From the NCBI GenBank assembly GCA_963768835.1, contig CAVYJB010000002.1:136230-200229 (forward strand): a stretch of 64,000 nucleotides of DNA, written 5' to 3'. The position numbers and the translations under genes were made by a program. This stretch comes from an uncultured bacterium. GTDB lineage: Bacteria; Patescibacteriota; Minisyncoccia; UBA6257; GWB1-50-10. Shown piece by piece: positions 4,106-52,237 of this stretch. Position 1 is the stretch's first letter; every line of letters starts with the position of its first letter. The notes beneath the pieces are model-generated. The model was not told the origin of the DNA. It did not search any database and saw nothing but the letters and a program-made list of their open reading frames with translations.

Positions 4106-4141
4106 GCCGGCAACGCAAAATAACGCGTTGCCGGCTTTTCC
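4106..4141 (+). terminator. rho-independent terminator
   Basis: GCCGGCAACGC…GCGTTGCCGGC hairpin followed by TTTTCC. Confidence 0.7.
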
Positions 4142-4167
4142 TTACTTTTCCGTGCCGACAAGGTATA

Positions 4168-4521
4168 ATGAGTCCAATGTTTAGGGCCCTGCTCTATCTC
4201 AGCGAGCATTTCTTTTATCATATTATTGAATTCCTCCGCCACTGGTACGTAAAGAGCGCTAAGCTCTATGCAAACTTCGTCCTGAACAGACTTGAGGCGC
4301 TTGATTACTATCTCGCGTGGCGCATCACGGCGAAAAACCTCTTCGAGCCGCTTTATAAGGATTATTCGGTGATTGGGCGGATGCTCGGGTTCGTTTTCCG
4401 CTCCATTCGCCTTATCGTTGGCAGTGTAGTTTACGCATGCCTCTTTGCAGTAGCCATCGCCCTCTATCTGGTTTGGGTCGCAATTCCGCCCTACCTCGTC
4501 CTAAAGGTTATCTCTGGCTAA
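4168..4521 (+). CDS. small membrane hypothetical protein, translationally coupled to ClpB-like gene
   Basis: C-terminal TM helices; stop at 4521 one nt before ATG 4523. Confidence 0.5.
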   Translation: MSPMFRALLYLSEHFFYHIIEFLRHWYVKSAKLYANFVLNRLEALDYYLAWRITAKNLFEPLYKDYSVIGRMLGFVFRSIRLIVGSVVYACLFAVAIALYLVWVAIPPYLVLKVISG

Positions 4522-4522
4522 C

Positions 4523-7048
4523 ATGGCACGTCTTTTATTCCGCGATGAACGATTTCTCCTGCCTGCGTACGCGGAGTTCTTCGTGCGGCTTATTGTCTAC
4601 TCCTGGTACGTTGTTTTCGGGGTTATAACACTCCTCCTAATCCTTTCCGCTGTCTTAGCGCACCCCCCCGCGTTTAACGGTTCTTTGGCTCTCGGATTGC
4701 TCTTCGCTCTATTTCTTGGTGACCGACTCCTCCACTACGGGGAGGGGGAACATCCTCTCTATGAGCTCAATCGAGGAGCTGAGGTGAATCTGGCGGTTGC
4801 CCTCACGCCGTCTGCTTTTCGGCTCGTGCACCGTTCGTTCCGAAAAGCGCTCGGCACGCACGAATCTTTTGAACTTCTGCTTCTAAAGGAGCTTGTGGAG
4901 CGAGGCGATATTCGGGAAGCGCTCCGTCGGCTTGATGTCCCTGCCAAAGATTTTCTGGCGAAAATCGAAGAGTACCTAGGGCGGGAACGGAGTGCAGCTC
5001 AGACGCCAACACGTGCCGATCTCTTAACGATCATCGGAGCTCTTGTAGAAGCGGCCTACCAGAACGCTGAGGGTGCCAGCGAGAAATTTATTGAGCCACG
5101 GAACCTTCTCTTTGCGTTGGGGAGCATTCCCAATCCTTCTATACAAAAACTCTTTGAGCTTTTCAATATCACCGCGGCGGACATAGGAGAAGCTATCATC
5201 TTTGGGAAGTGGGGCTCCCGCTTCGCGCGCTTGCGGAGTCTCCCGGCTACGCTTGGAGGGTTTGCCAATCATCGGATGATGCGCCACCGCGTGATGAATC
5301 GCGCTTGGACGGCGCGTCCCACGCCCACCCTGGACCGTTACAGCGCGGACCTAACCGACCTCGCGCGGGAAGAGTCTATAGGGTTTCTGATTGGCCATAC
5401 CAAGGAGTATGACCACCTTCTTCAGGTTGTGTCGCGCCCCGGGATGCCGAACGCCATCTTGGTAGGCGAGTCGGGTTCCGGGAAGTCCTCTCTCGTCGCC
5501 CACCTCGCATATCAGATAGTGAAAGATCAGGTTCCGCCCGTACTCTTTGATAAGCGGCTCGTATCGCTTCGCATCGCCGACCTTACCGCAGACGCGCCCG
5601 CGGAAGTCCTTACTGGGCGACTCGAGAAAATAGCGGATGAGATCCTTAAGGCGGGGAATATCGTATTACACCTTCCGAACATGCACGATCTCTTCCGCAC
5701 CGGGGGGACACGCGGGCTGGACGCTATCGATATCCTACTTCCCATCATTAAGAGCACTGCGATTCCAGTCATCGGAGACACTTTTCCGCGCGAGTTTAAG
5801 CAATATATTGAAACCCGTTCGGATTTCCTCGAGCAATTTGAAGTGGTTCCGGTGGAGGAGATCTCAGAAGCTGAGGCGCTTCGATTTCTTATCTATTCCA
5901 GCCTGATGCTTGAGAAGGAATACAAGGTCCTCATCACCTTCCGAGCTCTTAAGAAGGCGGTTGAGGTCGCGCATCGCTATTTTAAACCCAAGCTCCTCCC
6001 CGGGAGCGCGGTTGATCTTGTAAAACAAGCACTTGCGAAAGCTTCCCAGGAGCATCTCGTAGCCGTGAATGAAGACGTGGTCGTGGCTGTCGCGGAGCGG
6101 CAAAGCAAAATCCCTATCGAAAGGGCGGGAGCTGCCGAAGCGGAGAAACTCTTAGATCTCGAGAGCACCATTCATCAACGGCTTGTGGACCAGGAAGCGG
6201 CCGTTAAGGCTGTTGCGCAAGCTCTCCGCGAGTATCGGAGCGGCCTTGCGCGACGAGGTGGTCCCATCGCCACCTTCCTTTTCGTGGGGCCTACGGGCGT
6301 AGGGAAGACAGAACTCGCGAAAATCCTTGCGGAGACCCAGTTTGGTTCGAAGGACGCGATGACACGTCTCGATATGACCGAGTACCAAGATAAGCAGAGC
6401 ATCTTCCGCCTTATCGGAAATCCCGACGGATCCAGAAGCGGAGCTCTAACCGACGCGGTCCTCGCACGGCCCTACTGCCTCGTGCTCCTGGACGAGTTTG
6501 AAAAAGCGAGCCCCGACGTTCTAAATCTTTTCCTGCAGGTTTTCGATGACGGGCGTCTCACCGACAGCCTGGGGCGCACCGTGAACTTCGAAAACACCAT
6601 TCTCATCGCCACCTCGAACGCACACTCGGACTACATCAAAACTGAGATTGAGAAAGGACGCACCAGCGAGGATCTCGAGGAGGACATTAAGCGAAAACTG
6701 ACGGACTACTTCAAGCCGGAACTCCTAAACCGTTTCTCAAACATTATCGTGTTCCGGTCCCTCAAACTTGAGGAGATCCACACTATCACCAAGCTTCTTC
6801 TCCAAGAGATTGCCATGATACTTTCTGATACGCAGGGCATTACTCTCGAGGTGGACGAGGATGCGGTCAAACGCATTGCCGAGCTCGGCTACAGCCCCGC
6901 TTTCGGTGCCCGACCTCTCCGACAAACCATATCAGAGAACGTAAGAAGCGCTCTTGCTGAGAAAATTCTCCGGAAAGAGATCGGTCGGGGCAACACCATA
7001 CGCCTTGTCTACGCGGATGGCCGGTTCGATTTCAAGCTCATCGCCTGA
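4523..7048 (+). CDS. membrane-anchored ClpB/ClpC-like double AAA+ ATPase (NBD1 Walker B degenerate)
   Basis: N-terminal 2 TM helices; NBD1 Walker A GESGSGKSS but Walker B replaced (VLHLPNMHD instead of hhhhDE); NBD2 GPTGVGKTE, LLDEFEKA, GAPPGYVG-like RLIGNPDGSRSG; short linker instead of ClpB M-domain; no IGF/IGL ClpP loop seen. Confidence 0.75.
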   Translation: MARLLFRDERFLLPAYAEFFVRLIVYSWYVVFGVITLLLILSAVLAHPPAFNGSLALGLLFALFLGDRLLHYGEGEHPLYELNRGAEVNLAVALTPSAFRLVHRSFRKALGTHESFELLLLKELVERGDIREALRRLDVPAKDFLAKIEEYLGRERSAAQTPTRADLLTIIGALVEAAYQNAEGASEKFIEPRNLLFALGSIPNPSIQKLFELFNITAADIGEAIIFGKWGSRFARLRSLPATLGGFANHRMMRHRVMNRAWTARPTPTLDRYSADLTDLAREESIGFLIGHTKEYDHLLQVVSRPGMPNAILVGESGSGKSSLVAHLAYQIVKDQVPPVLFDKRLVSLRIADLTADAPAEVLTGRLEKIADEILKAGNIVLHLPNMHDLFRTGGTRGLDAIDILLPIIKSTAIPVIGDTFPREFKQYIETRSDFLEQFEVVPVEEISEAEALRFLIYSSLMLEKEYKVLITFRALKKAVEVAHRYFKPKLLPGSAVDLVKQALAKASQEHLVAVNEDVVVAVAERQSKIPIERAGAAEAEKLLDLESTIHQRLVDQEAAVKAVAQALREYRSGLARRGGPIATFLFVGPTGVGKTELAKILAETQFGSKDAMTRLDMTEYQDKQSIFRLIGNPDGSRSGALTDAVLARPYCLVLLDEFEKASPDVLNLFLQVFDDGRLTDSLGRTVNFENTILIATSNAHSDYIKTEIEKGRTSEDLEEDIKRKLTDYFKPELLNRFSNIIVFRSLKLEEIHTITKLLLQEIAMILSDTQGITLEVDEDAVKRIAELGYSPAFGARPLRQTISENVRSALAEKILRKEIGRGNTIRLVYADGRFDFKLIA

Positions 7049-7053
7049 TCCTA

Positions 7054-7724
7054 TGCGTATACGAATGGATCTAAAACTGAATATCCGCGAGCTCTCCATA
7101 AACCGCATCGTCCGGTACCTAGTCGTTGTAGACCTAATGCTCTGGGGCGGTTGGGGGCTTTTCGCGCCCATCTTTGCTGTCTTTATCCTCGATCGGATCC
7201 CGGGCGCCACCCTTATCACCATCGGGGCTGTTTCCGCCCTCTATTGGACCGTAAAATCCATCATTCAGATTCCCATTGCTCTCTTTTTAGATCGTCGCGC
7301 CGGAGAACGGGACGATTTCTATACCGTGATAATGGCACTGATTCTTGCGGGTTTCACCGCTATCAGCTTCCTCCTCGTGCATACCATCCCTGGCCTTTTC
7401 CTTGTTACGTTCTTGCAAGCCGTCGCTTTCGGTATTTATATTCCCGCTTGGTCGGGCATTTTTTCACGCCACCTCGATAAAAACCATTACTCGTTTGATT
7501 GGTCCCTCGACAGCACGAGTGTGGGTTTTGCCTATGGTGTGACGGCGCTTGTGGGCGGAAGCCTCGCCGCACTTCTAGGGTTCGAGACTGTTTTTATCCT
7601 CGCAAGCGTTATTTCTTTCACGAGCGCCGTAGTGCTTTTCTTCGCTCCGAATCTTATTCTGCCCAAGCCAATCGTGAAGTCGATAGCAGAACGCGGTGTT
7701 CCACTGTCGGAACACCCGCAGTAA
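7054..7724 (+). CDS. 6-TM membrane protein, MFS-like half transporter (hypothetical)
   Basis: Hydrophobic 223-aa protein; ATG 7054 immediately after clp-like stop; longer upstream ORF start 6954 overlaps preceding gene. Confidence 0.45.
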
Positions 7725-18079: not shown

Positions 18080-18364
18080 CGAACCTCTCCTTTCGTGCCG
18101 TTCTGCGGCACATTAGGCGAGCTGTTCTTCAGCTCGAGGTTTGCCATACGACGCAGATTGGTGCTGTTCATAGCAGCCCGTTTTCTCGCGCCCATTCCCT
18201 GATTTTCAAGGAACACTTATATTATATTCTATTTTGTTATAAAAGTCAATAGCGATTGGTTTCGGTTCAACTCCACCCGCCTATTAGGAATTTTGACTCC
18301 GAAAAAGGGAAAACAACGCTCAAAAAGCGTTGATTTTCCTAGCGTCCCAACATGCATAGAACTG

Positions 18365-18673
18365 TGGAGATGGCCGGAGTTGAACCGGCGTCCAAAGCGC
18401 TGCCCATGAACCTTCTACATGCTTAGATCTCTTGCGAGAACGAATTTTGGTTCTATTTTTAGTTCAAGCGTCCGAACCAACTCCGCTTAAACGATCCTAC
18501 GATATGACACCAGGCATCCTCTAGTAGGCACCGAGGGCTGATGCTACGCTACGCGTATGCGAGCGCAGGAACTGCAGTTTTGTTGGCAGTTATCGGTTGT
18601 GACCGGATTTACGAGACGATCAGCTCGGCGTGCCAACCCATTGGCGGGCGCTCTGTCGAAGCCCAACATCCCC
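18365..18673 (-). ncRNA. ssrA: tmRNA (ssrA)
   Basis: Minus strand 5' GGGGATGTTGGGCTTCGACAGAGC… and 3' …GGACGCCGGTTCAACTCCGGCCATCTCCA form tRNA-like acceptor/T-arm; internal frame GCC AAC AAA ACT GCA GTT CCT GCG CTC GCA TAC GCG TAG (tag ANKTAVPALAYA, inferred); directly downstream of smpB. Confidence 0.8.
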
Positions 18674-21314: not shown

Positions 21315-24300
21315 ATGCTCAAGAAATTCGAGGAATTCTCGCTTCCTAAGCTAGAACAGAAGGTTTTGGAGTTCTGGGATACCAACCAGATATTCCAAAA
21401 ATCCCTTAAAAATCGGGCGAAACGGAAGAAGTTTGTTTTCTATGAAGGGCCCCCGACGGCGAACGGCCGGCCGGGCATCCACCATATCCTCGCGCGGGCC
21501 TTTAAAGATGTCATTCCGCGGTACCGAACAATGGCTGGCGCCTACGTTCCGCGCCGAGGAGGTTGGGACACCCATGGGCTTCCCGTGGAACTTGAGGTAG
21601 AAAAGAAACTGGGGCTCACCTCAAAACGGGACATCGAGCGTTATGGCATCGAAAAGTTTAATGCGAAGTGTCGTGAATCGGTCTGGCAGTACCGCACCGA
21701 ATGGGAGAGCCTGACGCGGCGGATCGGGTTCTGGCTCGATATGCGGGATCCTTATATCACGTACGAGAATTCCTACGTCGAATCGCTCTGGGCTATTCTC
21801 AAGGAGATTGCGAAAAAGAAACTTCTCTATAAAGGCCACAAGGTGGTACCGTGGTGTCCGCGCTGCGGTACCACGCTTTCGTCCCATGAGCTCGCGCTCG
21901 GATATCGCGAGGTGGAGGAAACTTCAGTCTATCTTAAATTCAGGTTGAAGAAAGGGCAGAAGTTTGGTGGGGGGTTCACCACTGACGGTCGAACCTTCAT
22001 TCTTTCCTGGACCACGACCCCCTGGACCCTTCCCGGGAATGTTGCCTTAGCCATTGCGCCAAATGTAGAATACTCGCTCGTAGCGGTGGGAGACGGAGCC
22101 ACGCGGGAGACCTACATCCTCGCGACGCCGCGTCTTAGCATCCTTCCTGAGCCGCGCGAAATCCAGGGCACGGTCAAGGGGCGGGATCTCGTGGGTCTAG
22201 AATACGAGCCGCTTTTCGATATCAAGCCGCTCAATACCAAAACCTCCTATAAGGTATACCCCGCGAAGTTCGTGACAACTGTGGACGGTACGGGTGTGGT
22301 GCACACCGCCGTGATGTACGGAGAGGATGACTACAATCTCGGAAAAGAGGTTGGATTGCCGCAGGTTCATACCGTGGACCTCCAAGGACGCTTTCTCAAA
22401 GACGTTCCAGGGCTTGCGGGGCTTTACGCCAAAGATCATGGGACGGAAGGGAAAATACTCAAGGTTCTCCAGACAAACGGGAACCTTCTCCGGACCGAGC
22501 CCTATAAGCACGATTATCCTTTCTGTTGGCGGTGTTCTACGCCACTTCTCTACTACGCCCGGGATTCCTGGTTCATCGCCATGAGCCGGCTCCGGCCGGC
22601 GCTCCTGCGGGAAAATAAGAAGGTGAAGTGGGTTCCGGAATCCGTGAGAGACGGTCGGTTTGGAGAATGGCTTCGGGAAGTAAAGGATTGGGCTATTTCC
22701 CGCGAACGTTATTGGGGGACGCCGCTCCCTATCTGGCAATGCGAGAAGTGCGACCGGATTCATGTGGTAGGAAGCTACCAAGAACTTTCCGACCTTCAGG
22801 GCGGCCCAGCGAACCGCTACATCCTCATGCGTCATGGGGAGTCCATTTCGAATCTGAAAAATGAGATTAACGCACGGGCGAAAGACAAGAACGAGTTTGC
22901 GCTGACCTTACGCGGGCGGGTGGAAGCCGAGAAAGCCGCGAAGGCACTAAAGAAAGAAAAGATCGATCTCATTGTGGCGTCGGATTTCCGGAGAACCCGA
23001 GAGACGGCGGAGATCGTCGCGAAAGCCGTGGGCGCGTCGAAGGTTCTCCTCGACAAGCGGTTCCGCGAGATCAACACCGGCATTTTTGAGGGATGCCATG
23101 CGAAGGAGTATCGAGAATTCTTTTCTAGTTATCTTGAGGTGTTTACCAAGCGCCCACCGAAAGGGGAGGCGCTTCGGGACCTCGTCGCACGTTCTTTTGA
23201 GGGGCTTCAGGAGCTTGAAAAAAGGCACAAAGGGAAAACCATCCTCATCGTAAGCCACGAATATCCCATTTGGGCTCTCGAAACCGCGATGCGGGGGTGG
23301 AGCATGGAACAATCCATACGGGAGAAAGAAGCTCGCGGCGAGGACTTCATCGCGACTGCCGGTTGGCGCCCCGTTCCTGCACTCCGTCTCCCGCGAGGAG
23401 CTGAGCATTTTGCCGATCCCCACAAACCTTTCGTGGATAGCGTTGCATTTCCCTGTTCCTGTGGCGGGACGATGCGTCGGATTCCAGAAGTGGTAGATGT
23501 CTGGTTTGATTCAGGGGCCATGCCATTCGCCCAAAACCATTGGCCTTTCCAAAAGACCGCCATCGATTTCCCTGCAGATTATATCTCCGAGGCGGTGGAC
23601 CAGACACGCGGGTGGTTTTACACGCTTCTTGCCGAGGCCGTGGCGCTTGGGAAACCCGCACCTTTCCGGAACGTGATCTGTCTCGGCCTTATTATGGACA
23701 AGAACGGCCAGAAAATGTCGAAGTCCAAGGGTAATATCGTGGATCCGTGGGCGATGATAGAGAAGTACGGAGCCGACACGGTACGCTGGCATCTCTTTAC
23801 AGTGAACCCGCCCGGCGAGCCTAAAAAGTTTGACGAAGCTGACCTTGGAAAGACTCTCCGGCAGTTCATCCTGATGCTCTACAACTCCTTCGTCTTTTAC
23901 GAAACCTATGCGGTGAAACCCGGGAATCCCAGTCTTCCCCCGAAAACGAAGAACATTCTGGACCGATGGATTCTTGCCCGGCTTGTGGATACCACGGTTG
24001 CGGCGACCCGAGGCCTAGCATCCTATGACATCGGAGGGGCCGCTCGTGTACTCGAGCTTTTTGCCCAAGATCTTTCGCGCTGGTACATTCGCCGTTCGCG
24101 CCGCCGGCTCCAGAAACCCGAAAGCGCAGCGGACCAAGAGGCAGTTTCTCGGACCCTTGGATACGCACTCTTGAACCTCGCGGGTCTCCTCGCGCCCTTT
24201 ATGCCATTCTTTTCAGAAGCTCTATATCGATCAATTGTGAAGGAAGGAGGACGCCACACGCTGCCAGAATCTGTGCATCTCACCGACTGGCCGCGGGTGC

Positions 24301-24860
24301 CGAAAACCTTCGCAGATCCCAAGCTCCTCAAGGCAATGGAGGAGGTGCGGACCTTTGCGGGCCTTGGTCTCGCAAAACGGGCGGAGGTGGGCATTAAGGT
24401 TCGCCAGCCCCTCGGGATGTTCCGCATCAAAACCAAAGATCCCTACCTCCTTCATTCCAAGGAACTCCTGGATCTTCTGCGCGATGAGGTAAACGTCAAA
24501 GACGCGCATGTCGACAATGACATCCGTCGCCCCGTGGAGCTCGATATACGACTGAGCCAATCCCTCAAGGAGGAGGGGTATGTGCGGGAACTCGTTCGGA
24601 TGGTGCAGGATCTCCGGCAAGATGGGAAACTCGAGCCTAAGGACCGCGTGGTGGTACGCCTGGAAATCCCCAAAGAACTCCTCCGAGTTATCGAAACCCA
24701 CGAGGCTTTTCTCAAGACAGAAGTAAATGCCCGCTCCGTGGAGTATCGGCGCTCGCCTAAGTTCACAATCGAGCTCGAGACAAAACTTGACGCCTCGCCC
24801 CTCGCAAAGGATAAAGGTGAGGGATGGCCGGTCTGGATAGGTCTTCAGAAAGTTTCTTGA
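21315..24860 (+). CDS. ileS: isoleucine--tRNA ligase (type 2) with inserted histidine-phosphatase (PGAM-like) domain
   Basis: PPTANGRPGIHH (HIGH), KMSKSKGN, CP1 editing and Zn-ribbon CSCGGTMRR; residues encoded ~22797-23400 form LMRHGESISN…RRTRETAEI…IVSHEYPIWAL histidine phosphatase signature inserted between …IHVVGSYQELSDL and …DPHKPFVDSVAF. Confidence 0.85.
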   Translation: MLKKFEEFSLPKLEQKVLEFWDTNQIFQKSLKNRAKRKKFVFYEGPPTANGRPGIHHILARAFKDVIPRYRTMAGAYVPRRGGWDTHGLPVELEVEKKLGLTSKRDIERYGIEKFNAKCRESVWQYRTEWESLTRRIGFWLDMRDPYITYENSYVESLWAILKEIAKKKLLYKGHKVVPWCPRCGTTLSSHELALGYREVEETSVYLKFRLKKGQKFGGGFTTDGRTFILSWTTTPWTLPGNVALAIAPNVEYSLVAVGDGATRETYILATPRLSILPEPREIQGTVKGRDLVGLEYEPLFDIKPLNTKTSYKVYPAKFVTTVDGTGVVHTAVMYGEDDYNLGKEVGLPQVHTVDLQGRFLKDVPGLAGLYAKDHGTEGKILKVLQTNGNLLRTEPYKHDYPFCWRCSTPLLYYARDSWFIAMSRLRPALLRENKKVKWVPESVRDGRFGEWLREVKDWAISRERYWGTPLPIWQCEKCDRIHVVGSYQELSDLQGGPANRYILMRHGESISNLKNEINARAKDKNEFALTLRGRVEAEKAAKALKKEKIDLIVASDFRRTRETAEIVAKAVGASKVLLDKRFREINTGIFEGCHAKEYREFFSSYLEVFTKRPPKGEALRDLVARSFEGLQELEKRHKGKTILIVSHEYPIWALETAMRGWSMEQSIREKEARGEDFIATAGWRPVPALRLPRGAEHFADPHKPFVDSVAFPCSCGGTMRRIPEVVDVWFDSGAMPFAQNHWPFQKTAIDFPADYISEAVDQTRGWFYTLLAEAVALGKPAPFRNVICLGLIMDKNGQKMSKSKGNIVDPWAMIEKYGADTVRWHLFTVNPPGEPKKFDEADLGKTLRQFILMLYNSFVFYETYAVKPGNPSLPPKTKNILDRWILARLVDTTVAATRGLASYDIGGAARVLELFAQDLSRWYIRRSRRRLQKPESAADQEAVSRTLGYALLNLAGLLAPFMPFFSEALYRSIVKEGGRHTLPESVHLTDWPRVPKTFADPKLLKAMEEVRTFAGLGLAKRAEVGIKVRQPLGMFRIKTKDPYLLHSKELLDLLRDEVNVKDAHVDNDIRRPVELDIRLSQSLKEEGYVRELVRMVQDLRQDGKLEPKDRVVVRLEIPKELLRVIETHEAFLKTEVNARSVEYRRSPKFTIELETKLDASPLAKDKGEGWPVWIGLQKVS

Positions 24861-45596: not shown

Positions 45597-46091
45597 ATGA
45601 CTCTCATGAAAAAATTAATCGTATTGGTTTCGCTGGGCCTCCTATTGCCCTCCTTCGTCGTCGGGGCGACACTCAATCGCAATCTCTCCATTGGTATGAC
45701 CGGAACGGATGTATCTTGGCTTCAGCAATTCCTTACCTACGACGGTGTCTACAGCGGACCAATTACCGGGACCTTCGGTCTTCTCACGAGAAATGCAGTA
45801 GTCGCATTCCAGGTGCAAGAGGGTATTTCACCAACGAACGGCTATTTCGGCCCCCTCACCCGCGCCGATGAGATTAAGGTCCTAGCGGCTCACCCGGACT
45901 GGACGACGTCGCTCTCCAACGGCAACTCCTACTCGAATGTGAATGGAAACCCCGTCCACTCTCCTGCTTACTCCTCTAATGGGGTTCCAGCTGGCGCAAC
46001 CGCACAGTGCCGAGACCTAACGTATAGTTTTAGCCTGCATCGTAGCGGTACATGTTCTTATCACGGAGGTGTACTGCATTGGTTGTACTAA
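45597..46091 (+). CDS. secreted protein with peptidoglycan-binding domain (PG_binding_1) and DUF3761-like C-terminus
   Basis: Signal peptide; …DVSWLQQFLTYDGVYSGPITGTFGLLTRNAVVAFQ…; C-terminal …CRDLTYSFSLHRSGTCSYHGGV…. Confidence 0.55.
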   Translation: MTLMKKLIVLVSLGLLLPSFVVGATLNRNLSIGMTGTDVSWLQQFLTYDGVYSGPITGTFGLLTRNAVVAFQVQEGISPTNGYFGPLTRADEIKVLAAHPDWTTSLSNGNSYSNVNGNPVHSPAYSSNGVPAGATAQCRDLTYSFSLHRSGTCSYHGGVLHWLY

Positions 46092-46097
46092 AAATGG

Positions 46098-46373
46098 ATG
46101 AGTAGTTGGCTGAAAGAAAATTGGTTTAAAGCGGGAATACTGTCCCTTCTCCTACTGGTTACGATTGGTGGGTTCTTTTGGTATGAAGTTCGCCCGGCGA
46201 TAATCAGAAATGAGTGCTCTTGGACCGTCGAGCATGTACCGGCCATAACAGAAATCACTCCAGATGAAGCAAAAACTCTGCAAGAACAATGCTTAGAGGA
46301 GCAAAAAAACCAGGCGCCTTCAGGGAAATTTCTCAACTTGTTCCCCCCGGAGATGAGGCTGCTTCTTGTTTGA
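46098..46373 (+). CDS. small membrane protein (possibly frameshifted/pseudogene)
   Basis: One TM; overlapping alternative frame ORF 46289-46471 suggests disruption. Confidence 0.3.
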   Translation: MSSWLKENWFKAGILSLLLLVTIGGFFWYEVRPAIIRNECSWTVEHVPAITEITPDEAKTLQEQCLEEQKNQAPSGKFLNLFPPEMRLLLV

Positions 46374-46509
46374 ATAACAACCAACGAAGACCCGCGCAAG
46401 AAGCCAAGGATTTACCACGGAAAACGAGTGAGGACGAGTACAAATTTTGCATTCGTAACAAAGGACTGTGATCCCCACCCCACGCGAGGAGGTGATAGAA
46501 TGAGACCAC

Positions 46510-46998
46510 ATGGGCAGTACCCGCTTCTCACATGAACTAATTAAGGGGAAGATAGCGGAACTCATTTTCGAGCTGATGTTCCGCGAGTCAGGGAGATTCA
46601 CGACACTTCGGTTCGGTTATGAGTACACCCTCCCCGAGCTAGCGCAGTACCAGCATCTCGTTGAGGTTAAGAAGGTTTTGGATAATATCCGCAATGCGCC
46701 AGATTTCATCCTGATTTCGAACGCCACGGAGAAGAAAGCGGTTTATATTGTTGAGGTCAAATACCGGACGAGGCGTGACCCGAAGGAGATTAAGGAAATC
46801 GCCGAGAACACGCTCAAGACCTGGGACCCGTCATGGCTGTTTGTCGCTTCGCCAGACGGGTTTTTCTTCGAGCCCTGTCATACGGTGATGAAGAACGAGG
46901 GGAACATTGGTCCGCTATATGAAACGTGGGTTCCTAGGCCAATCATGAACAAGTACCTCGAACTGCTCAAGGACTTTGAGCACGGTGAGGACCGGTAG
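46510..46998 (+). CDS. PD-(D/E)xK-fold nuclease-like protein
   Basis: Helix E (…KIAELIFELMF…), …NAPDFILIS…(D) and …AVYIVEVKYR (E-x-K) in canonical order/spacing. Confidence 0.5.
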   Translation: MGSTRFSHELIKGKIAELIFELMFRESGRFTTLRFGYEYTLPELAQYQHLVEVKKVLDNIRNAPDFILISNATEKKAVYIVEVKYRTRRDPKEIKEIAENTLKTWDPSWLFVASPDGFFFEPCHTVMKNEGNIGPLYETWVPRPIMNKYLELLKDFEHGEDR

Positions 46999-47023
46999 GA
47001 GGTCGGAGTGATAGAATTTAACT

Positions 47024-47866
47024 ATGGCGAGACAAGGACACTCTCAGAAGGAAGATCCCTTCGAACTGTACCTTAGGGGGGTTTTCACCCTGGCTGTTCT
47101 GGGTTTAGGTTGGTACATTCTAGAGAATCCGAAGAAATCGGTAACCATATTAGTAGCGGTTCTCGTTGTCATCCTCCTGTTTGTCGTTTTGAGGATATGG
47201 TGGCGCAGAAAACACTTCAATGATCTATTAGAGAAACTAAGGAATTCCCCCGGACAAGAAGATGCTGTCAAAAGGTTTATCGCAATATCTGGCTCCGAGA
47301 AGGGGAGGGGAGAAGATTTCGTGAGCATCCGAGGCCATAAGTTCAGGAGGTACGACATTGAAGATCTGACAAACACGTTAAGAAAGAATGGCGTACCCGC
47401 AAGGGAGAAAGATGTTTCGAGGCTTCTTGAGCATTATATCCGAGAAAGAGGAGAGGGATTTATCAGTGGGCTCGGCAGTGTTTCTAAAGAGCCTCAGAGA
47501 TTCGCGAGTTTGTCTCCATACCAGTTCGAGCAGCTCCTCGTTCGCCTTTTCCAGGCGATGGGATATGAAGCCCGACACCAGGGTAGGCCGGGCGATCAGG
47601 GAGGTGACGTAATCGCTGTCAAAGGAGGTGAGAAACTTTTGATACAAGCCAAGCGTTATGGTGACCAAGACCCCACCGGGAATGCCGCCGTCCAGCAAGC
47701 GTTTACAGCGATGAGCATCTACAACTGCAATGAATCAATGGTGGTCACGACCTCCTATTTTACGCCAGAGGCCAGGGAGGCAGCCAAAACAACCCGGACC
47801 TATCTTGCCGAAAAGAAAGAACTGCAAAAATGGCTTCAAGAATATCTGAAGGAAGACTGGTTCTAA
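47024..47866 (+). CDS. membrane-anchored Mrr-like restriction endonuclease domain protein (Mrr_cat)
   Basis: Two N-terminal TM; C-terminal …FEQLLVRLFQAMGYEARHQGRPGDQGGDVIAVKGGEKLLIQAKRY…NAAVQQ… matches Mrr catalytic core (D…QxK). Confidence 0.6.
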   Translation: MARQGHSQKEDPFELYLRGVFTLAVLGLGWYILENPKKSVTILVAVLVVILLFVVLRIWWRRKHFNDLLEKLRNSPGQEDAVKRFIAISGSEKGRGEDFVSIRGHKFRRYDIEDLTNTLRKNGVPAREKDVSRLLEHYIRERGEGFISGLGSVSKEPQRFASLSPYQFEQLLVRLFQAMGYEARHQGRPGDQGGDVIAVKGGEKLLIQAKRYGDQDPTGNAAVQQAFTAMSIYNCNESMVVTTSYFTPEAREAAKTTRTYLAEKKELQKWLQEYLKEDWF

Positions 47867-47992
47867 ATCTCGACCGAGAAGGGTTGCCTGGGTAAGGCAT
47901 AAGACCGTTCGAATATTGTCCAGTCGACGAACCTGATACCCCTGAATATTGCTGCAATCGCCTTTGCGCAGGGGCGGTAGTTCCTAACTCCA

Positions 47993-48904
47993 ATGGAAAA
48001 CGAACCCGATAGAACTCAACAACCGGCCCCGGTTAAGACCAAAAAGAAGTGGAACCGAGGGCTTGGTGGATTTATTGTGAGTGGTTTAATTTACGCGTTT
48101 GCACAGGAGAGTTTCAACAAATCAGGAGTCGACGCGGCTATTATTCTTGCTGTTGCACTTGGAGCGTGGCCGCTATACTACTTTCTCAAATCCAAGATAA
48201 GAGAAAGTGAGTGGGTAAGAATCGTTGTCGCCTTTCTTATTATTGAAATAATCGCCGGGTTCTTGATTGGATTTTCTATTCGGATGACGGATAGATTTTC
48301 GGCAACTGCTGTTGGCGCTCCGAGTTTGGCGCCGACCGCGGTTAAGAAAGATGTTAATCAAGAAAGCCCTACGGCTCCCACTGGAACCCTTAACTATGAT
48401 GCCCTTATCAACGATGCCTTGTCTAACCTACAAACAAAGCAGGGCAACCTCGAAACTGTTTTGTCCACCAGTAAATATACTTCGTATAAATACAGCGCCT
48501 TGTTGGGACAGTTAGTATTTACCGATCCCTCAACGAACGACAGGCTAACCGCCGAAGTACAGGACATAGGCGGTTTGGCGCCCGACAAGGACGGCAAGGA
48601 AACATGGATGTGGTCTTGGGCTAATGACTCCGTGCCCTCCGATATGGCGAAAGATTCTTCAGGAGTTAAGCAATTTGGCACCATTCATAATCAAGAGATA
48701 AGAAACGCGCCAACCAACAAGGCGTTATTAGGTCGCAATCCTCTAACGGAGGGGGTATTTATTTCTGACGACGTAGACGCCCTTGATCTTACCGCTGTAA
48801 CACTCTACCTAGCTGGCGGTGAAGGAATCTACAAGGTGCCGTTTACTAACGATAATGGGAATGCGGTTGAATACTTATTAATAAAAGACTTCTTGGGTCG
48901 GTAA
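47993..48904 (+). CDS. membrane hypothetical protein
   Basis: 3 N-terminal TM then extracytoplasmic domain. Confidence 0.45.
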   Translation: MENEPDRTQQPAPVKTKKKWNRGLGGFIVSGLIYAFAQESFNKSGVDAAIILAVALGAWPLYYFLKSKIRESEWVRIVVAFLIIEIIAGFLIGFSIRMTDRFSATAVGAPSLAPTAVKKDVNQESPTAPTGTLNYDALINDALSNLQTKQGNLETVLSTSKYTSYKYSALLGQLVFTDPSTNDRLTAEVQDIGGLAPDKDGKETWMWSWANDSVPSDMAKDSSGVKQFGTIHNQEIRNAPTNKALLGRNPLTEGVFISDDVDALDLTAVTLYLAGGEGIYKVPFTNDNGNAVEYLLIKDFLGR

Positions 48905-48953
48905 GAAAGAATAGACTCGATCGAAAGGAACCCCCCAGCTGTCAACGAAACTA

Positions 48954-49020
48954 TGGTGAGTGGCATGGTGGGGTACCCCTAAAAACAGGTTCTAACGTCC
49001 TCCACCAGGGGCTGTCCTAC
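48954..49020 (+). repeat. cassette-associated repeat copy R1
   Basis: …GAGTGGCATGGTGGGGTACCCCTAAAAACAGGTTCTAACGTCCTCCACCAGGGG…. Confidence 0.7.
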
Positions 49021-49037
49021 CTGGACTATTCTATTCC

Positions 49038-49922
49038 TTAGTTGGACGAGGTCACCCTAAACCCGCCAAACTCGACATCCATGAAATCGGTTCGAATACC
49101 AACGTTACCGGGAACTGAGATTGGTTTGCCTCCATATTGAATACCGTCATCGGTGGCACTCAGGACCTCCTTCCAATTGCCGGTCCTTCCGATATCAACC
49201 GACAAGACAATGGTCACGCTTCCAGTAGCATTGTTGGTGACGTTGGTCCGGAGCCCAACCGATTCTCCAATGGGCAGTAGGTTCGGATTTCTAGTGCGGT
49301 CATACGTTCCTGGGAAGATGGCACGATACGCCATGGTGTAATAGACCCCATTCGCCTTCTTCTTAATCACCGCGGCACCATCCACACGGACGCCCACGTC
49401 ATAGAGATTGTTGGCATCCTGATAGCGATTGAGAAGGAACAAACCATTCGATTGGTTGCGGTTCGGGCTCGCGCTGAAATTATTATTCTTAATCAGGAAA
49501 TAGGTCTCTGCGGTATAATTCTGCCACTTCGATTGCGATATCAACCGAAAAACATTCTGAGGATGATAGCCTTCATCGGTATCAACTGGGTTATTCTGAA
49601 AATACCTCAGTCTCCACGCATCGCTGCTCGGCAGTGAGCCCATGATGGTCGATGCCACGCCGCTGGTCGCAACATAGAAATACCCTCCTGAACTGGGCCA
49701 CCAATCCGGATTGGCGCTCTCTGTCGAGCTTCCCACCTCTTGCAGTTCTCCTTGCACGGAAAGGAAGAGATTCTGGGCGGGGGTGGATGACGCGGCTTCC
49801 ATCGCAGTTCGTTTATTACTCAGCGGATGGGACGGGGAACGCAAGATAGTTCCCACCAGAGCAATCAGGAGAAGGAAGGCGATGGTCGTGAGAAGGAAGA
49901 AAATTATCTGGTGGTGCTTCAT
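49038..49922 (-). CDS. membrane-anchored extracytoplasmic protein, ConA/LamG-like beta-sandwich (hypothetical)
   Basis: N-terminal TM; shares beta-rich repeat pattern with C-terminal domains of adjacent deacetylase. Confidence 0.45.
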   Translation of the reverse strand: MKHHQIIFFLLTTIAFLLLIALVGTILRSPSHPLSNKRTAMEAASSTPAQNLFLSVQGELQEVGSSTESANPDWWPSSGGYFYVATSGVASTIMGSLPSSDAWRLRYFQNNPVDTDEGYHPQNVFRLISQSKWQNYTAETYFLIKNNNFSASPNRNQSNGLFLLNRYQDANNLYDVGVRVDGAAVIKKKANGVYYTMAYRAIFPGTYDRTRNPNLLPIGESVGLRTNVTNNATGSVTIVLSVDIGRTGNWKEVLSATDDGIQYGGKPISVPGNVGIRTDFMDVEFGGFRVTSSN

Positions 49923-52237
49923 TATTGGTAGGTGTTCTGTACGTCCGCACTCTCTACGATAATCTTACTGTTATTTGTCGTCGGGTCCCATGTGGTGAAT
50001 CCGATGCCGCCGCTGAAGGGCGGATTCATGGTATAACCGGTCGTACTCAACACGACGTGGTTATCGAAGGAACAGATACCCTGTGTGCCCTGCACCTGGG
50101 CATAGATGGTATGCGCAGACGAGATATCCGAGACGTTGTTGTCGGCGCCTTCCGCCAAAACGTACTCGACGCCGTTAATATATTGCTCTAATGCAATACT
50201 AACGGTTCCGGGAACGCTTCGGTCGAACTCGCACCGTACGTAATTATTATCATCCTTGTACCGCGCGATTATACCGAGGGTCTGACCGCGCACCCAATCA
50301 ACCGCCGCGCTGAACTTGTAATCCGTCCAACCCCCTGAGTTTGCCAATATCACCTCAGAACCGGTGGTGGAGGCATTCGCTTCCGTGCTTAGGAACCTTT
50401 CGGAGTCTATCACCATGGTTCCCCATGTCGTTCGCCAATTTCCGTCGTTTGCGAAATCATTCTCAGTGTATGGAATCTGAAGGTTGGGAACTGGCAATTC
50501 CGGGGAAGACGGGGGAGAACTACTCGGTGCGACAGCAACGATTTCTGCTGTGGACGTCGGGCTGGGAGCCACGGCTGAACTCGTTGCCACATCCGTGCTC
50601 TGCTTACTATCCGAAACCCCGCTACTCGGCATATCGGCCGTGGCAATGGCATTAATCGGCAATGGCGCGGCGCTCAGGCTCACAATCTCCAATTTCTTGA
50701 GGGTCGATTGCGCAACTACGTTCGGGTCCCATACGCTGAAACCAGCCGCACCCCTCGATAACGTTGTGGAGACTCCGTTGGTCAACGCTTTCCCGTCGAA
50801 CGAAACGGCGACAATGCCGTTATAGACGGACATGGTAATTTCCATTTCGTCTTTTCGGGGCAACGAGTATGCCGAAGCGAGCTCCCGTTCCTTCCCGTCC
50901 ACGCACTCTACTAGTCGCAGAGATGTGTCGCCCCAGTCCAGACTGATGTAATTCTGCTCGTCAACATAACGGGCCACGATAGATGCGGAACGGCCCGTTT
51001 CCCGAGCTATGGTTGCTCGAATACTGTAATTGTCCCATCCCGAATCTCCCAATAGCACGCGAGCCGCGTTGGACCCCGCCTTGGAGAGGAGCGTGAAGCC
51101 GTTTCTTGTGTCAAGCGTGCCGTACAACAACTGAGTATTCTGAAGAAACGATGTTGAATCGCCAGAGCTTGGCAAGGTGAGGGCGGGCGGTTTCGGGGCA
51201 AAATGTTCCAATGTTCGGAGCAAATTATCCGGGCCCATGTCCTTCACCTCGAGCCGCTTTAGCTCATTGTACGGGTTGGAGTCTTTATAGTTATAAAAAC
51301 TTTCGAACGCCCCGTTGCTATCGCTCATGGCTTCGACGAACGCGAGCTTGAAATAGCGGCGCGTGAGCCCGATGTTGAAATCTTTGGCACCGTCGTAGTT
51401 AGACAGGTCCAACGCCCCGAAGTGGTTGAGCGGCACCGCAAGGTACTGGGGGTCCGTTCCCAGATGTTCTTTTATGTCCGATATGCCGTTTATATAATCC
51501 GCCTCGACTCTTTTCTGATAGCTCTTGATGCTTTCTAGGCCTACACCCGGCGTATAGATGCGCGATGTCAGATACGACCCGGTGTTCCCATCCTTGTCTA
51601 TCACAACTTTTTCATGGGAACGCCTGCCGTGCGCCTCGATTTCCCAGCGCCCCGTGGCCTGCATCTTCGCCAGCTCATCCCACCCGAGGTAGAACGGGTC
51701 GTTATTGTTGGCCCTGATGGTGGCTACGAAAAGGGTTGCCTTGAATCCCAGCTTCTTCAATACGTCGTCGACGGGGTAGAAACTGTCCTTGCGTCCATCG
51801 TCGAACGTAAGAATGATGGGCTTGGGTGGCAACGTGAACTTTCCCTCCCTGAAGAGTTCGTACTCCCCGACCGATATGGTCTCATATCCATTCTGCTTCA
51901 GCATCTCCATCTGGGCGATAAAATTCGGACGGCTAGTGTTCGGGCCCACTGGACCGTTGCTTATGATGCCGTGATACATGAGGATGGGTACGGCTTGGCC
52001 CGGAGACAGTTTGGAGGTATCTTCCACTGTGAAATTCTTCGGCGGGGAGAAAGCATAGACATACGCATGAATGCGTATCGCCTTTAGTAAGCCGCTACTG
52101 GCCGGATATAGGAGGATAACCACCGTTCCTACGAATGCCACGATAATCAATAGATAAATTGTTTTCTTGAGTGTCATGGTTATCGTGTACCCCAATGTGT
52201 CTTCCGAAGCGTCAGAAGGGCGTAGGGCATCTGCCAT
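49922..52237 (-). CDS. polysaccharide deacetylase (NodB homology domain) with two C-terminal lectin-like domains
   Basis: N-terminal TM; …PIILTFDDGRKDSFYPVDDVLKKLGFKATLFV… NodB motif 1; duplicated ~130-aa beta domains at C-terminus. Confidence 0.7.
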   Translation of the reverse strand: MADALRPSDASEDTLGYTITMTLKKTIYLLIIVAFVGTVVILLYPASSGLLKAIRIHAYVYAFSPPKNFTVEDTSKLSPGQAVPILMYHGIISNGPVGPNTSRPNFIAQMEMLKQNGYETISVGEYELFREGKFTLPPKPIILTFDDGRKDSFYPVDDVLKKLGFKATLFVATIRANNNDPFYLGWDELAKMQATGRWEIEAHGRRSHEKVVIDKDGNTGSYLTSRIYTPGVGLESIKSYQKRVEADYINGISDIKEHLGTDPQYLAVPLNHFGALDLSNYDGAKDFNIGLTRRYFKLAFVEAMSDSNGAFESFYNYKDSNPYNELKRLEVKDMGPDNLLRTLEHFAPKPPALTLPSSGDSTSFLQNTQLLYGTLDTRNGFTLLSKAGSNAARVLLGDSGWDNYSIRATIARETGRSASIVARYVDEQNYISLDWGDTSLRLVECVDGKERELASAYSLPRKDEMEITMSVYNGIVAVSFDGKALTNGVSTTLSRGAAGFSVWDPNVVAQSTLKKLEIVSLSAAPLPINAIATADMPSSGVSDSKQSTDVATSSAVAPSPTSTAEIVAVAPSSSPPSSPELPVPNLQIPYTENDFANDGNWRTTWGTMVIDSERFLSTEANASTTGSEVILANSGGWTDYKFSAAVDWVRGQTLGIIARYKDDNNYVRCEFDRSVPGTVSIALEQYINGVEYVLAEGADNNVSDISSAHTIYAQVQGTQGICSFDNHVVLSTTGYTMNPPFSGGIGFTTWDPTTNNSKIIVESADVQNTYQ

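Follow-up and report, generated by a model that had tools for sequence, protein, structure and literature searches.

Introduction

Members of the Clp/Hsp100 family of AAA+ proteins (ATPases associated with diverse cellular activities) are the textbook threading motors. In ClpA, ClpC and ClpE, a ClpP-docking loop of the form [ILV]G[FL] sits between sensor-1 and the arginine finger of the second ATPase domain (D2). Elsewhere among AAA+ proteins, NSF-D2 and p97-D1 act as assembly or allosteric tiers. Torsin, a membrane-associated relative of the Clp/Hsp100 proteins, is without aromatic pore loops and is under the control of transmembrane cofactors, and a non-processive, dynamic remodelling has been argued for it (PMC5425593). 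Described here is a two-gene locus from an uncultured bacterium of the Patescibacteriota, contained in a 64,000-nucleotide stretch of contig CAVYJB010000002.1 (assembly GCA_963768835.1, positions 136,230 to 200,229 of the forward strand). This whole stretch is called the window, and all coordinates refer to it. The locus consists of an open reading frame (ORF) for a membrane-anchored double-AAA+ protein of the Clp/Hsp100 family (841 residues; 4523-7048, + strand) and, directly upstream, the gene of a small membrane partner protein (117 residues, or 114 if read from the ATG at 4177; 4168-4521, + strand).

The locus was read as encoding a D2-powered hexamer that sits at the membrane face and works with its partner in a manner that is probably non-threading and Torsin-like. 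The probability of this overall reading was put at roughly 0.55. The identity of the protein, the role of D2 as the only motor and the partnership were held with high confidence, and the odds on a non-threading mode of action were about even. The initial annotation of the window had described a protein of ClpB/ClpC type with two N-terminal transmembrane helices, a first Walker B motif without its acidic pair, an intact D2, a short linker without an M-domain and no ClpP-docking tripeptide, the ATG of which followed the stop codon of a small membrane protein by one nucleotide.

Family assignment and fold

Pfam profiles placed AAA_2 at residues 581-740 of the 841-residue protein (expectation value (E) 7e-52), ClpB_D2-small at residues 747-827 (1.4e-20; 6761-7003, + strand; including the sensor-2 motif GARPLR, residues 795-800) and AAA_lid_9 at residues 450-534. 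The first AAA+ domain (D1) gave weak P-loop matches alone. Class-I Clp/Hsp100 proteins are built from two AAA+ modules in tandem, the second of AAA_2 type and with a ClpB_D2-small domain, and this search with hidden Markov models (HMMs) bore out the double-AAA+ identity proposed initially. The nearest solved structures by sequence were those of Bacillus subtilis ClpC (PDB 3j3t, E 1.9e-116), Thermus thermophilus ClpB and Escherichia coli ClpA. NCBIfam models for ClpB, ClpK, ClpA, ClpG and ClpV matched far under their curated cut-offs. The top match, ClpB (TIGR03346), covered residues 515-837 and scored 467.5 bits against a cut-off of 1232.1. The ClpA model (TIGR02639), the alignment of which begins at residue 125, scored 408.8 against 993.15 bits, and ClpV/TssH scored 394.5 against 884.95 bits.

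A structural model was produced with AlphaFold2 (AF2) from 105 homologues and had a mean predicted local distance difference test score (pLDDT) of 86.4. Its D1-D2 core was superposed on subunits of ClpC and ClpB hexamers with a target-normalised template modelling score (TM-score) of 0.80-0.85 and a root-mean-square deviation of about 4 Å over some 580 columns, and Foldseek aligned the model full-length to ClpC. An all-helical Clp_N-like N-domain (residues 79-236; 4757-5230, + strand) begins about 8 residues after the membrane helix; several homologues have a PF02861 entry, which supports this assignment. PF20030 (bpMoxR), recorded for some of the homologues, was rejected as an N-terminal domain, being a sub-threshold P-loop match in D1/D2. 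All motif counts given below were taken over the same 105 homologues of the 841-residue protein. Motif states, fold, conservation and gene linkage, fusions included, were observed directly.

The N-domain and D1 are joined by a linker that carries the signature motif RVMNRAWTARPTPTLD (residues 256-271; 5288-5335, + strand). In the form RHRVMNRAWTARPTPxLD, this motif shows the highest conservation anywhere outside D2; the rest of the linker is flexible and of low pLDDT. NRAWTARPTP is invariant although AlphaFold predicts its linker to be disordered (pLDDT 40-75). The motif was also found, as NRGW..PTPxLD, in a Daviesbacteria clade in which the two proteins of the locus are fused.

An intact D2 with a shortened pore loop

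The catalytic motifs of D2 are the Walker A sequence GPTGVGKT (6287-6310, + strand), the Walker B sequence LVLLDEFEK (6479-6505, + strand; D657 and E658) and, from sensor-1 to the trans-acting arginine finger, N699 to R737 (6617-6733, + strand). Walker A, Walker B, sensor-1, R737 and sensor-2 were all present in 105/105 homologues. The description of D2 as intact was therefore correct, with GPTGVGKT, LLDEFEKA, N699, R737 and GARPLR all in place.

The pore loop of D2, in Hsp100 motors the chief element for gripping substrate, is shortened to GNPDGSRSG (residues 632-640; 6416-6442, + strand). The YVGY of GYVGY is deleted, and the canonical loop GSPPGYVGYDEGG aligns with GNPDG----SRSG, which is four residues shorter. 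An aromatic residue in this loop was found in 0/105 homologues. The pore-loop region of D1 (residues 352-365; 5576-5617, + strand) reads APAE against KYRG in ClpC and had no aromatic residue in 103/105 homologues. The aromatic pore loop 1 (KYRG in D1, GYVG in D2) is thus missing from both rings, a point absent from the initial annotation. With no aromatic paddle in either loop, processive threading is unlikely. As it also has a single working ATPase ring, the protein probably acts unlike any Clp chaperone characterised so far.

No ClpP-docking loop was found, the VGF region of ClpC being aligned with a gap in the 841-residue protein. At this site a match to [ILVM]G[FLIM] occurred by chance in 1/105 homologues, against 6/6 controls (VGF, IGF, LGF). 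Without this loop the protein would not feed ClpP. Between the D1 lid and the second Walker A lie 96 residues, where six ClpC/ClpE controls have 142-157, and ClpA, itself without an M-domain, aligns as one uninterrupted block (query 269-825 against 168-730). No long coiled coil was seen in the AF2 model. The short linker, the missing M-domain and the missing docking tripeptide of the initial annotation were all upheld by these comparisons. Lacking an M-domain, the protein would not be a DnaK-coupled disaggregase of the ClpB type.

These results bear on the name under which the family is filed. Relatives of the large protein are called 'ATP-dependent Clp protease ATP-binding subunit' and nothing else in the databases, and this name, together with ClpC and ClpA being closest by sequence and fold, would favour an ordinary ClpC/ClpA-type subunit of the ClpP protease with an odd N-terminus. 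The docking loop is reduced to a single chance match among the homologues, the NCBIfam equivalog scores lie far under their cut-offs (ClpA 409/993, ClpB 467/1232) and the tyrosines of both pore loops are absent. Protease neighbours had been proposed as a check. A crude six-frame regular-expression search of the 64-kb window for ClpP, FtsH, Lon and ClpX signatures returned only the Walker A of the gene itself, so that neither ClpP nor FtsH is apparent within the window. A ClpP subunit was accordingly judged highly improbable, and the 'Clp protease ATP-binding subunit' label in public databases is contradicted by the present evidence.

A degenerate first ATPase domain

D1 has the Walker A sequence GESGSGKS (5465-5488, + strand), the lysine of which, K321, is retained in 102/105 homologues. 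Its Walker B, IVLHLPNMHD (5660-5689, + strand), is degenerate, with P385 at the Asp position and N386 at the position of the catalytic Glu. In the alignment to ClpC (3j3t), ILFIDELHTL is matched by VLHLPNMHDL; IDE is replaced by LPN and the DE pair by PN, as the initial annotation had noticed. Proline occupies the Asp position in 96/105 homologues. An offset Walker B was considered and rejected: D389 lies four residues past the end of the strand (L384) and opens the next helix in the AF2 model, and is therefore not equivalent to the DE pair. The arginine finger of D1, which the initial annotation had not covered, is lost as well. The canonical ERRF reads LEQF (5828-5839, + strand), and Q438 is found in 102/105 homologues. 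A catalytically competent D1 has a Walker B of the form hhhhDE and an arginine finger. Because D1 has neither the acidic pair nor the finger, it is predicted to be unable to hydrolyse ATP. Of the 175 columns of the D1 large domain, 50 are conserved at 95% or more; D1, though degenerate, is under purifying selection.

The small protein and its linkage to the ATPase

The junction between the 117- and 841-residue ORFs reads TAA-C-ATG on one strand, with the one-nucleotide spacer that had been reported. A single strong hydrophobic segment lies at the C-terminus of the small protein (residues 73-117, peak 2.53), and within it one transmembrane helix was predicted at about residues 80-112. About 70 residues at the N-terminus form helices in which basic and aromatic side chains abound. 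EFLRHWY, D46 and F.PLYKDYS..G..LGF.FR..R are conserved, the motifs being invariant. Neither Pfam nor NCBIfam gave a match for the small protein of the window, and a scan of 37 aligned members against known families, with E up to 10, returned scattered noise alone. Its 102 close homologues are all named 'hypothetical'. When 1.84 billion representative proteins were searched with its profile, 410 clusters were obtained; nearly all of the best 150 were stand-alone proteins of about 105-125 residues, and one was a fusion. P0369 (1540 residues, 23 matches to the small-protein profile) was discarded as a spurious match to a tandem-repeat sequence.

Loci were collected from one genome per GTDB species. 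The scan returned 80 loci: about 20 full-length family members, about 30 distant relatives from the candidate phyla radiation (CPR), and an outgroup of ClpC, ClpE and ClpL from Firmicutes and Chloroflexus. Organism names were used as deposited, and several 'binchicken' bins appear loosely labelled. The fetched CPR loci with flanking DNA were searched for the small protein by tblastn and an iterated HMM. Its domain was found in 49/49 of them. A separate small gene lies directly upstream on the same strand in 39, with stop and start usually overlapping or abutting; in two (L045 and L053) it lies directly downstream of a soluble relative; and in eight (L025, L031, L032, L035, L040, L041, L044 and L051) it is fused to the N-terminus within the same ORF. 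The remaining four CPR loci, which had no match, all begin at a contig edge. The domain was present in 0/27 loci of soluble relatives outside the group (26 from Firmicutes/Chloroflexus, and L050).

At least 282 proteins of about 835-850 residues, mostly from Daviesbacteria and Microgenomates, have the fused form and constitute a large family of their own. Its model (pLDDT 88.1, predicted template modelling score 0.81) runs from a long N-terminal helix through a conserved PLFHDSS loop to a 48-residue helix that enters the membrane, followed by a second membrane helix and the Clp_N-like domain. The occurrence of split and fused forms is gene-fusion ('Rosetta-stone') evidence and argues for a physical and functional partnership. 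The small gene was also the sole neighbour conserved over distant lineages. The co-occurrence suggested at the outset is thus real, and from adjacency and fusions we hold with high confidence that the small protein is an obligate partner of the ATPase.

Membrane anchor

The 841-residue protein begins with a hydrophobic hairpin (4565-4732, + strand), in which AF2 placed helices at residues 15-45 and 53-70. By hydropathy, residues 17-52 form a strong segment (peak 2.48 on the Kyte-Doolittle scale over 19 residues) and residues 53-67 a shorter one. At the cytoplasmic end of the hairpin lies a juxtamembrane motif in which D67 and R68 are invariant and H71 and E76 are conserved at 90% or more. Two transmembrane helices are plausible from hydropathy and AF2. 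Of the transmembrane pair proposed initially, the hydrophobic hairpin and its strong first segment were upheld; the second helix is short for a membrane span. N-terminal hydrophobic segments were found in 47/47 membrane-type CPR relatives against 0/9 soluble relatives (six Firmicutes/Chloroflexus proteins of ClpC/ClpE type, L050, and the soluble CPR forms L045 and L053). The anchor is conserved throughout the clade, and the protein was rightly set apart from the canonical cytosolic Clp ATPases.

The loop between the two hydrophobic helices contains a seven-residue insertion, AHPPAFN (residues 46-52; 4658-4678). It is missing from essentially all of the other 104 aligned homologues.

Family spread and evolutionary series

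More than 600 relatives of about 830 residues were found with full-length coverage and 55-64% identity, all from Patescibacteria, in lineages that include Parcubacteria/Paceibacterota, Jorgensenbacteria, Brennerbacteria and Minisyncoccia. More distant CPR relatives came from Kerfeld-, Uhr-, Kuenen-, Levy- and Daviesbacteria, WWE3 and CPR3. A contig look-up with the exact sequence of the 841-residue protein returned no record. Full-text searches of the literature turned up no description of this membrane Hsp100 family. A membrane-anchored Hsp100 variant without aromatic loops and with an obligate partner is widespread and unannotated. Given the minimal genomes and host dependence of Patescibacteria, a conserved module built on an 840-residue ATPase is likely to be important at the membrane.

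The distant relatives differ in what they have retained. L045 and L053 encode soluble Hsp100 proteins with GYVGY, IDEIH and ERRF, without an M-domain or ClpP loop, and with the partner gene downstream. These soluble variants (L045:2747-5771 and L053:1244-5532) have long Q/P-rich tails, the L053 protein being 1293 residues long. The CPR3 locus (L031) encodes a fusion with an intact D1 Walker B and the D2 loop GYPGY. Partial decay of the D2 loop was seen in other lineages (PPGQVGY, PPGSKDSSAGG, APGYRGA). In the Parcubacteria clade that includes the window and in the fused Daviesbacteria clade the loop is entirely without aromatic residues, and the same is true of most distant CPR relatives. Many lineages have lost the D1 Walker B (IPN, IPD, IPS, IDN, IEN), which most of the fused forms keep, and arginine sometimes replaces the Walker A lysine of D1. 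From the pattern in L045, L053 and L031, the association with the partner is older than the covalent anchor and older than the loss of the pore loop. A substrate-threading ancestor at the membrane is probable, and the derived forms have probably taken on another activity.

The same series bears on the alternative that the protein is a genuine threading extractase or unfoldase for membrane proteins, close to the idea of the initial annotation, with its entry face towards the membrane as in FtsH or Msp1 and the small protein as an adaptor. Non-aromatic pore loops would then draw membrane or membrane-proximal proteins into the pore. The predicted architecture does put the N-terminal entry face beside the membrane, the D2 loop is still aromatic in deep relatives that share the partner (GYPGY in L031, GYVGY in L045 and L053), the catalytic residues of D2 are invariant, and what is left of the D2 loop, PDGxR/KTG, is fairly conserved. 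The aromatic residue has, however, been deleted rather than substituted in the sole active ring, without exception among the homologues and in the fused clade too, and processive unfolding by the characterised Clp/Hsp100 proteins depends critically on this residue (PMC5425593). The pore-loop columns of D1 are variable, which suggests that they are under no constraint. Taken together, a threading extractase was judged fairly unlikely.

Proposed mechanism

In the preferred, probably non-threading reading, the locus encodes a CPR-specific machine of two components. The 841-residue protein would form a two-tier hexameric ring by homology with ClpA, ClpB and ClpC, and the invariant trans-acting arginine finger of D2 points to ring assembly. 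As only about 8 residues separate the membrane helices from the N-domain, the hairpins would keep the N-terminal face, which bears the Clp_N-like domains, at the cytoplasmic side of the membrane. The partner would have its transmembrane helix beside the hairpins and would touch the juxtamembrane and N-terminal parts of the ATPase with its conserved cytosolic region of basic and aromatic residues. The D2 ring alone would hydrolyse ATP. D1 would bind nucleotide without hydrolysis and serve as a structural, assembly or allosteric tier. ATP cycles in D2 would serve to remodel, assemble or release clients at the membrane, or the complex with the partner itself, in a non-processive way.

Loss of the substrate-gripping loops, with nucleotide sites strongly conserved in both rings, would also suit a nucleotide-sensing scaffold or regulator that does no mechanical work and, for example, holds or frees the partner or another factor according to the ATP level. 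The obligate linkage to the partner fits such a role, as does the invariant flexible motif at residues 256-271, which suggests a binding interface. The hydrolysis set of D2 (catalytic Glu, sensor-1, trans-acting arginine finger and sensor-2) is nevertheless invariant and points to hydrolysis-driven work, and a two-ring protein of 840 residues would be a costly sensor in genomes of about 0.5-1 Mb. A scaffold was therefore considered quite unlikely.

The non-threading reading can be carried further, to a bacterial counterpart of a Torsin/Bcs1-type machine, in which a hexamer with about 18 transmembrane helices (six hairpins and six partner helices) would spend its D2 ATP cycles on remodelling or gating its own membrane assembly instead of on threading. 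This extension is speculative and, on balance, unlikely. If true, possible tasks would be to remodel the membrane, or to assemble or transport components of the envelope or of host contact, and near-universal retention in the tiny CPR genomes would mark a lineage-defining, essential membrane function.

Several points weigh against the overall reading of a Torsin-like, D2-powered hexamer. Hexamer formation, topology and contact with the partner are steps that we infer; the second hydrophobic helix is short, and the topology was taken from hydropathy and AF2. The reading gives no role to the conserved flexible NRAWTARPTP motif. L031, L045 and L053 keep GYPGY or GYVGY, and the derived non-aromatic loop might still grip substrate. 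Unlike Torsin, D2 keeps its own R737 (105/105), and the partner is not AAA-like. As to function, the initial annotation had suggested a membrane-tethered unfoldase/disaggregase pair, perhaps associated with secretion. The tether and the pairing were sustained. The mechanistic label was not, since the aromatic pore loops and the M-domain are gone, and nothing was found that ties the pair to a secretion system.

Transcription and neighbouring genes

A terminator-like hairpin (4106-4135, + strand; 11 pairs, nine of them G-C, followed by a T-run) ends the upstream transcription unit. Because it precedes the small gene, the pair starts a new unit. A TATAAT hexamer (4164-4169, + strand) overlaps the ATG at 4168 and is a candidate promoter element. 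Taken as a -10 box, it would place the transcript start near 4176 and translation at the ATG at 4177. The public gene call for the small protein (P0121) is 114 residues long and starts at this ATG, and most homologues start at the corresponding M4 position; the real product is therefore probably the 114-residue form. Read in this way, the mRNA of the small partner is possibly leaderless.

Genes nearby include Wzy_C, UDG, a half-size MFS-like membrane protein and NUDIX, and the neighbourhood is not one of type VI secretion. The half-size MFS-like gene (223 residues; 7053-7724, + strand; positions 6-175 of the 347 of the MFS_1 profile) starts 5 nucleotides past the stop codon of the Clp-like gene. 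A similar gene of about 220 residues occupies this position in nine close loci and is not found in distant ones, and because of this absence it probably lies outside the module. The NUDIX, IF3-like, UDG, half-size MFS and roughly 575-residue genes were considered as linked neighbours and rejected, as they recur in close genomes only, which points to shared ancestry and not to a functional link. In six distant CPR loci (L024, L028, L029, L030, L036 and L037) the Clp-like gene is followed, immediately in five of them, by the gene of a polytopic membrane protein; judged by eye, this protein is MraY/WecA-like (a glycosyl-1-phosphate transferase).

Three further observations were made in the window. 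An isoleucyl-tRNA-synthetase-like protein of 1181 residues (21315-24860, + strand) contains a complete His_Phos_1 domain of phosphoglycerate-mutase type at residues 503-666. It sits within the class-I catalytic core, with the tRNA-synt_1 match split around it, and is an unusual insertion. A transfer-messenger RNA (tmRNA) gene (18364-18673, - strand) encodes the tag peptide ANKTAVPALAYA. Its presence indicates that the genome uses trans-translation, and hence that tag-degrading proteases are encoded outside the window. The stretch 46000-50000 has a G+C content of 0.488, against about 0.53-0.55 elsewhere. It contains a gene with an Mrr_cat restriction-endonuclease domain (47024-47866), and the product of the ORF just upstream resembles the C-terminal, zinc-ribbon portion of large serine recombinases. 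This stretch may be an integrated element.

Comparison with known systems

The closest relatives by sequence (ClpC, 1.9e-116) and fold (target-normalised TM-score about 0.8) are ClpC and ClpA. The order of N-domain, D1, D2 and D2-small is shared with them and the catalytic motifs of D2 are identical; like ClpA, the 841-residue protein has no M-domain. It differs from both in having the membrane hairpin and in being without the ClpP loop, the D1 Walker B and arginine finger, and the pore-loop tyrosines. Its obligate partner is a small membrane protein, whereas MecA and ClpS are soluble adaptors. With ClpB and Hsp104 it shares two AAA+ rings, the absence of a ClpP loop and a closely similar D2. 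Unlike them it has a catalytically dead D1 and a membrane anchor, has no M-domain and hence no coupling to DnaK/Hsp70, and has no pore-loop tyrosines. ClpL, ClpG and ClpK are likewise Hsp100 proteins that act without ClpP, and the NCBIfam models of ClpK and ClpG match the 841-residue protein weakly (about 400 bits against a cut-off of 1900). These proteins are soluble, however, with D2 pore-loop tyrosines, an active D1 and a short M-domain.

In FtsH and Msp1/ATAD1, as proposed here, an N-terminal anchor sets the entry face of the ring at the cytoplasmic side of the membrane. Both belong to the classical AAA proteins and have a single ring and aromatic pore loops, to which FtsH adds a HEXXH protease domain. 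The FtsH combination of a single AAA domain with an M41 HEXXH domain does not apply to the 841-residue protein: no HExGH was found in the protein or in the window, and there was no match to Peptidase_M41.

Torsin with LAP1 and LULL1 resembles the locus in being an Hsp100-related AAA+ system that associates with the membrane through N-terminal hydrophobic sequence, that has no aromatic pore loops, that works with transmembrane partners and that sets a catalytically inert AAA-like module beside an active one (PMC5425593). Torsin has a single AAA+ domain, and its arginine finger is supplied by the cofactor. In the 841-residue protein the inert module, D1, is in the same chain as the active one, and the partner is a helical membrane protein of about 115 residues. 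The comparison concerns working logic only; an evolutionary link was neither found nor sought. The module gives a tractable bacterial model of the way in which Hsp100 relatives without such pore loops, Torsin among them, do their work, and the relatives that keep the D2 pore loop provide a natural series for the change from a threading to a non-threading motor. Set beside the threading motors of the textbook family, the proteins described here make up a large and conserved bacterial branch that is anchored, has one working ring, is without pore-loop paddles and is partnered.

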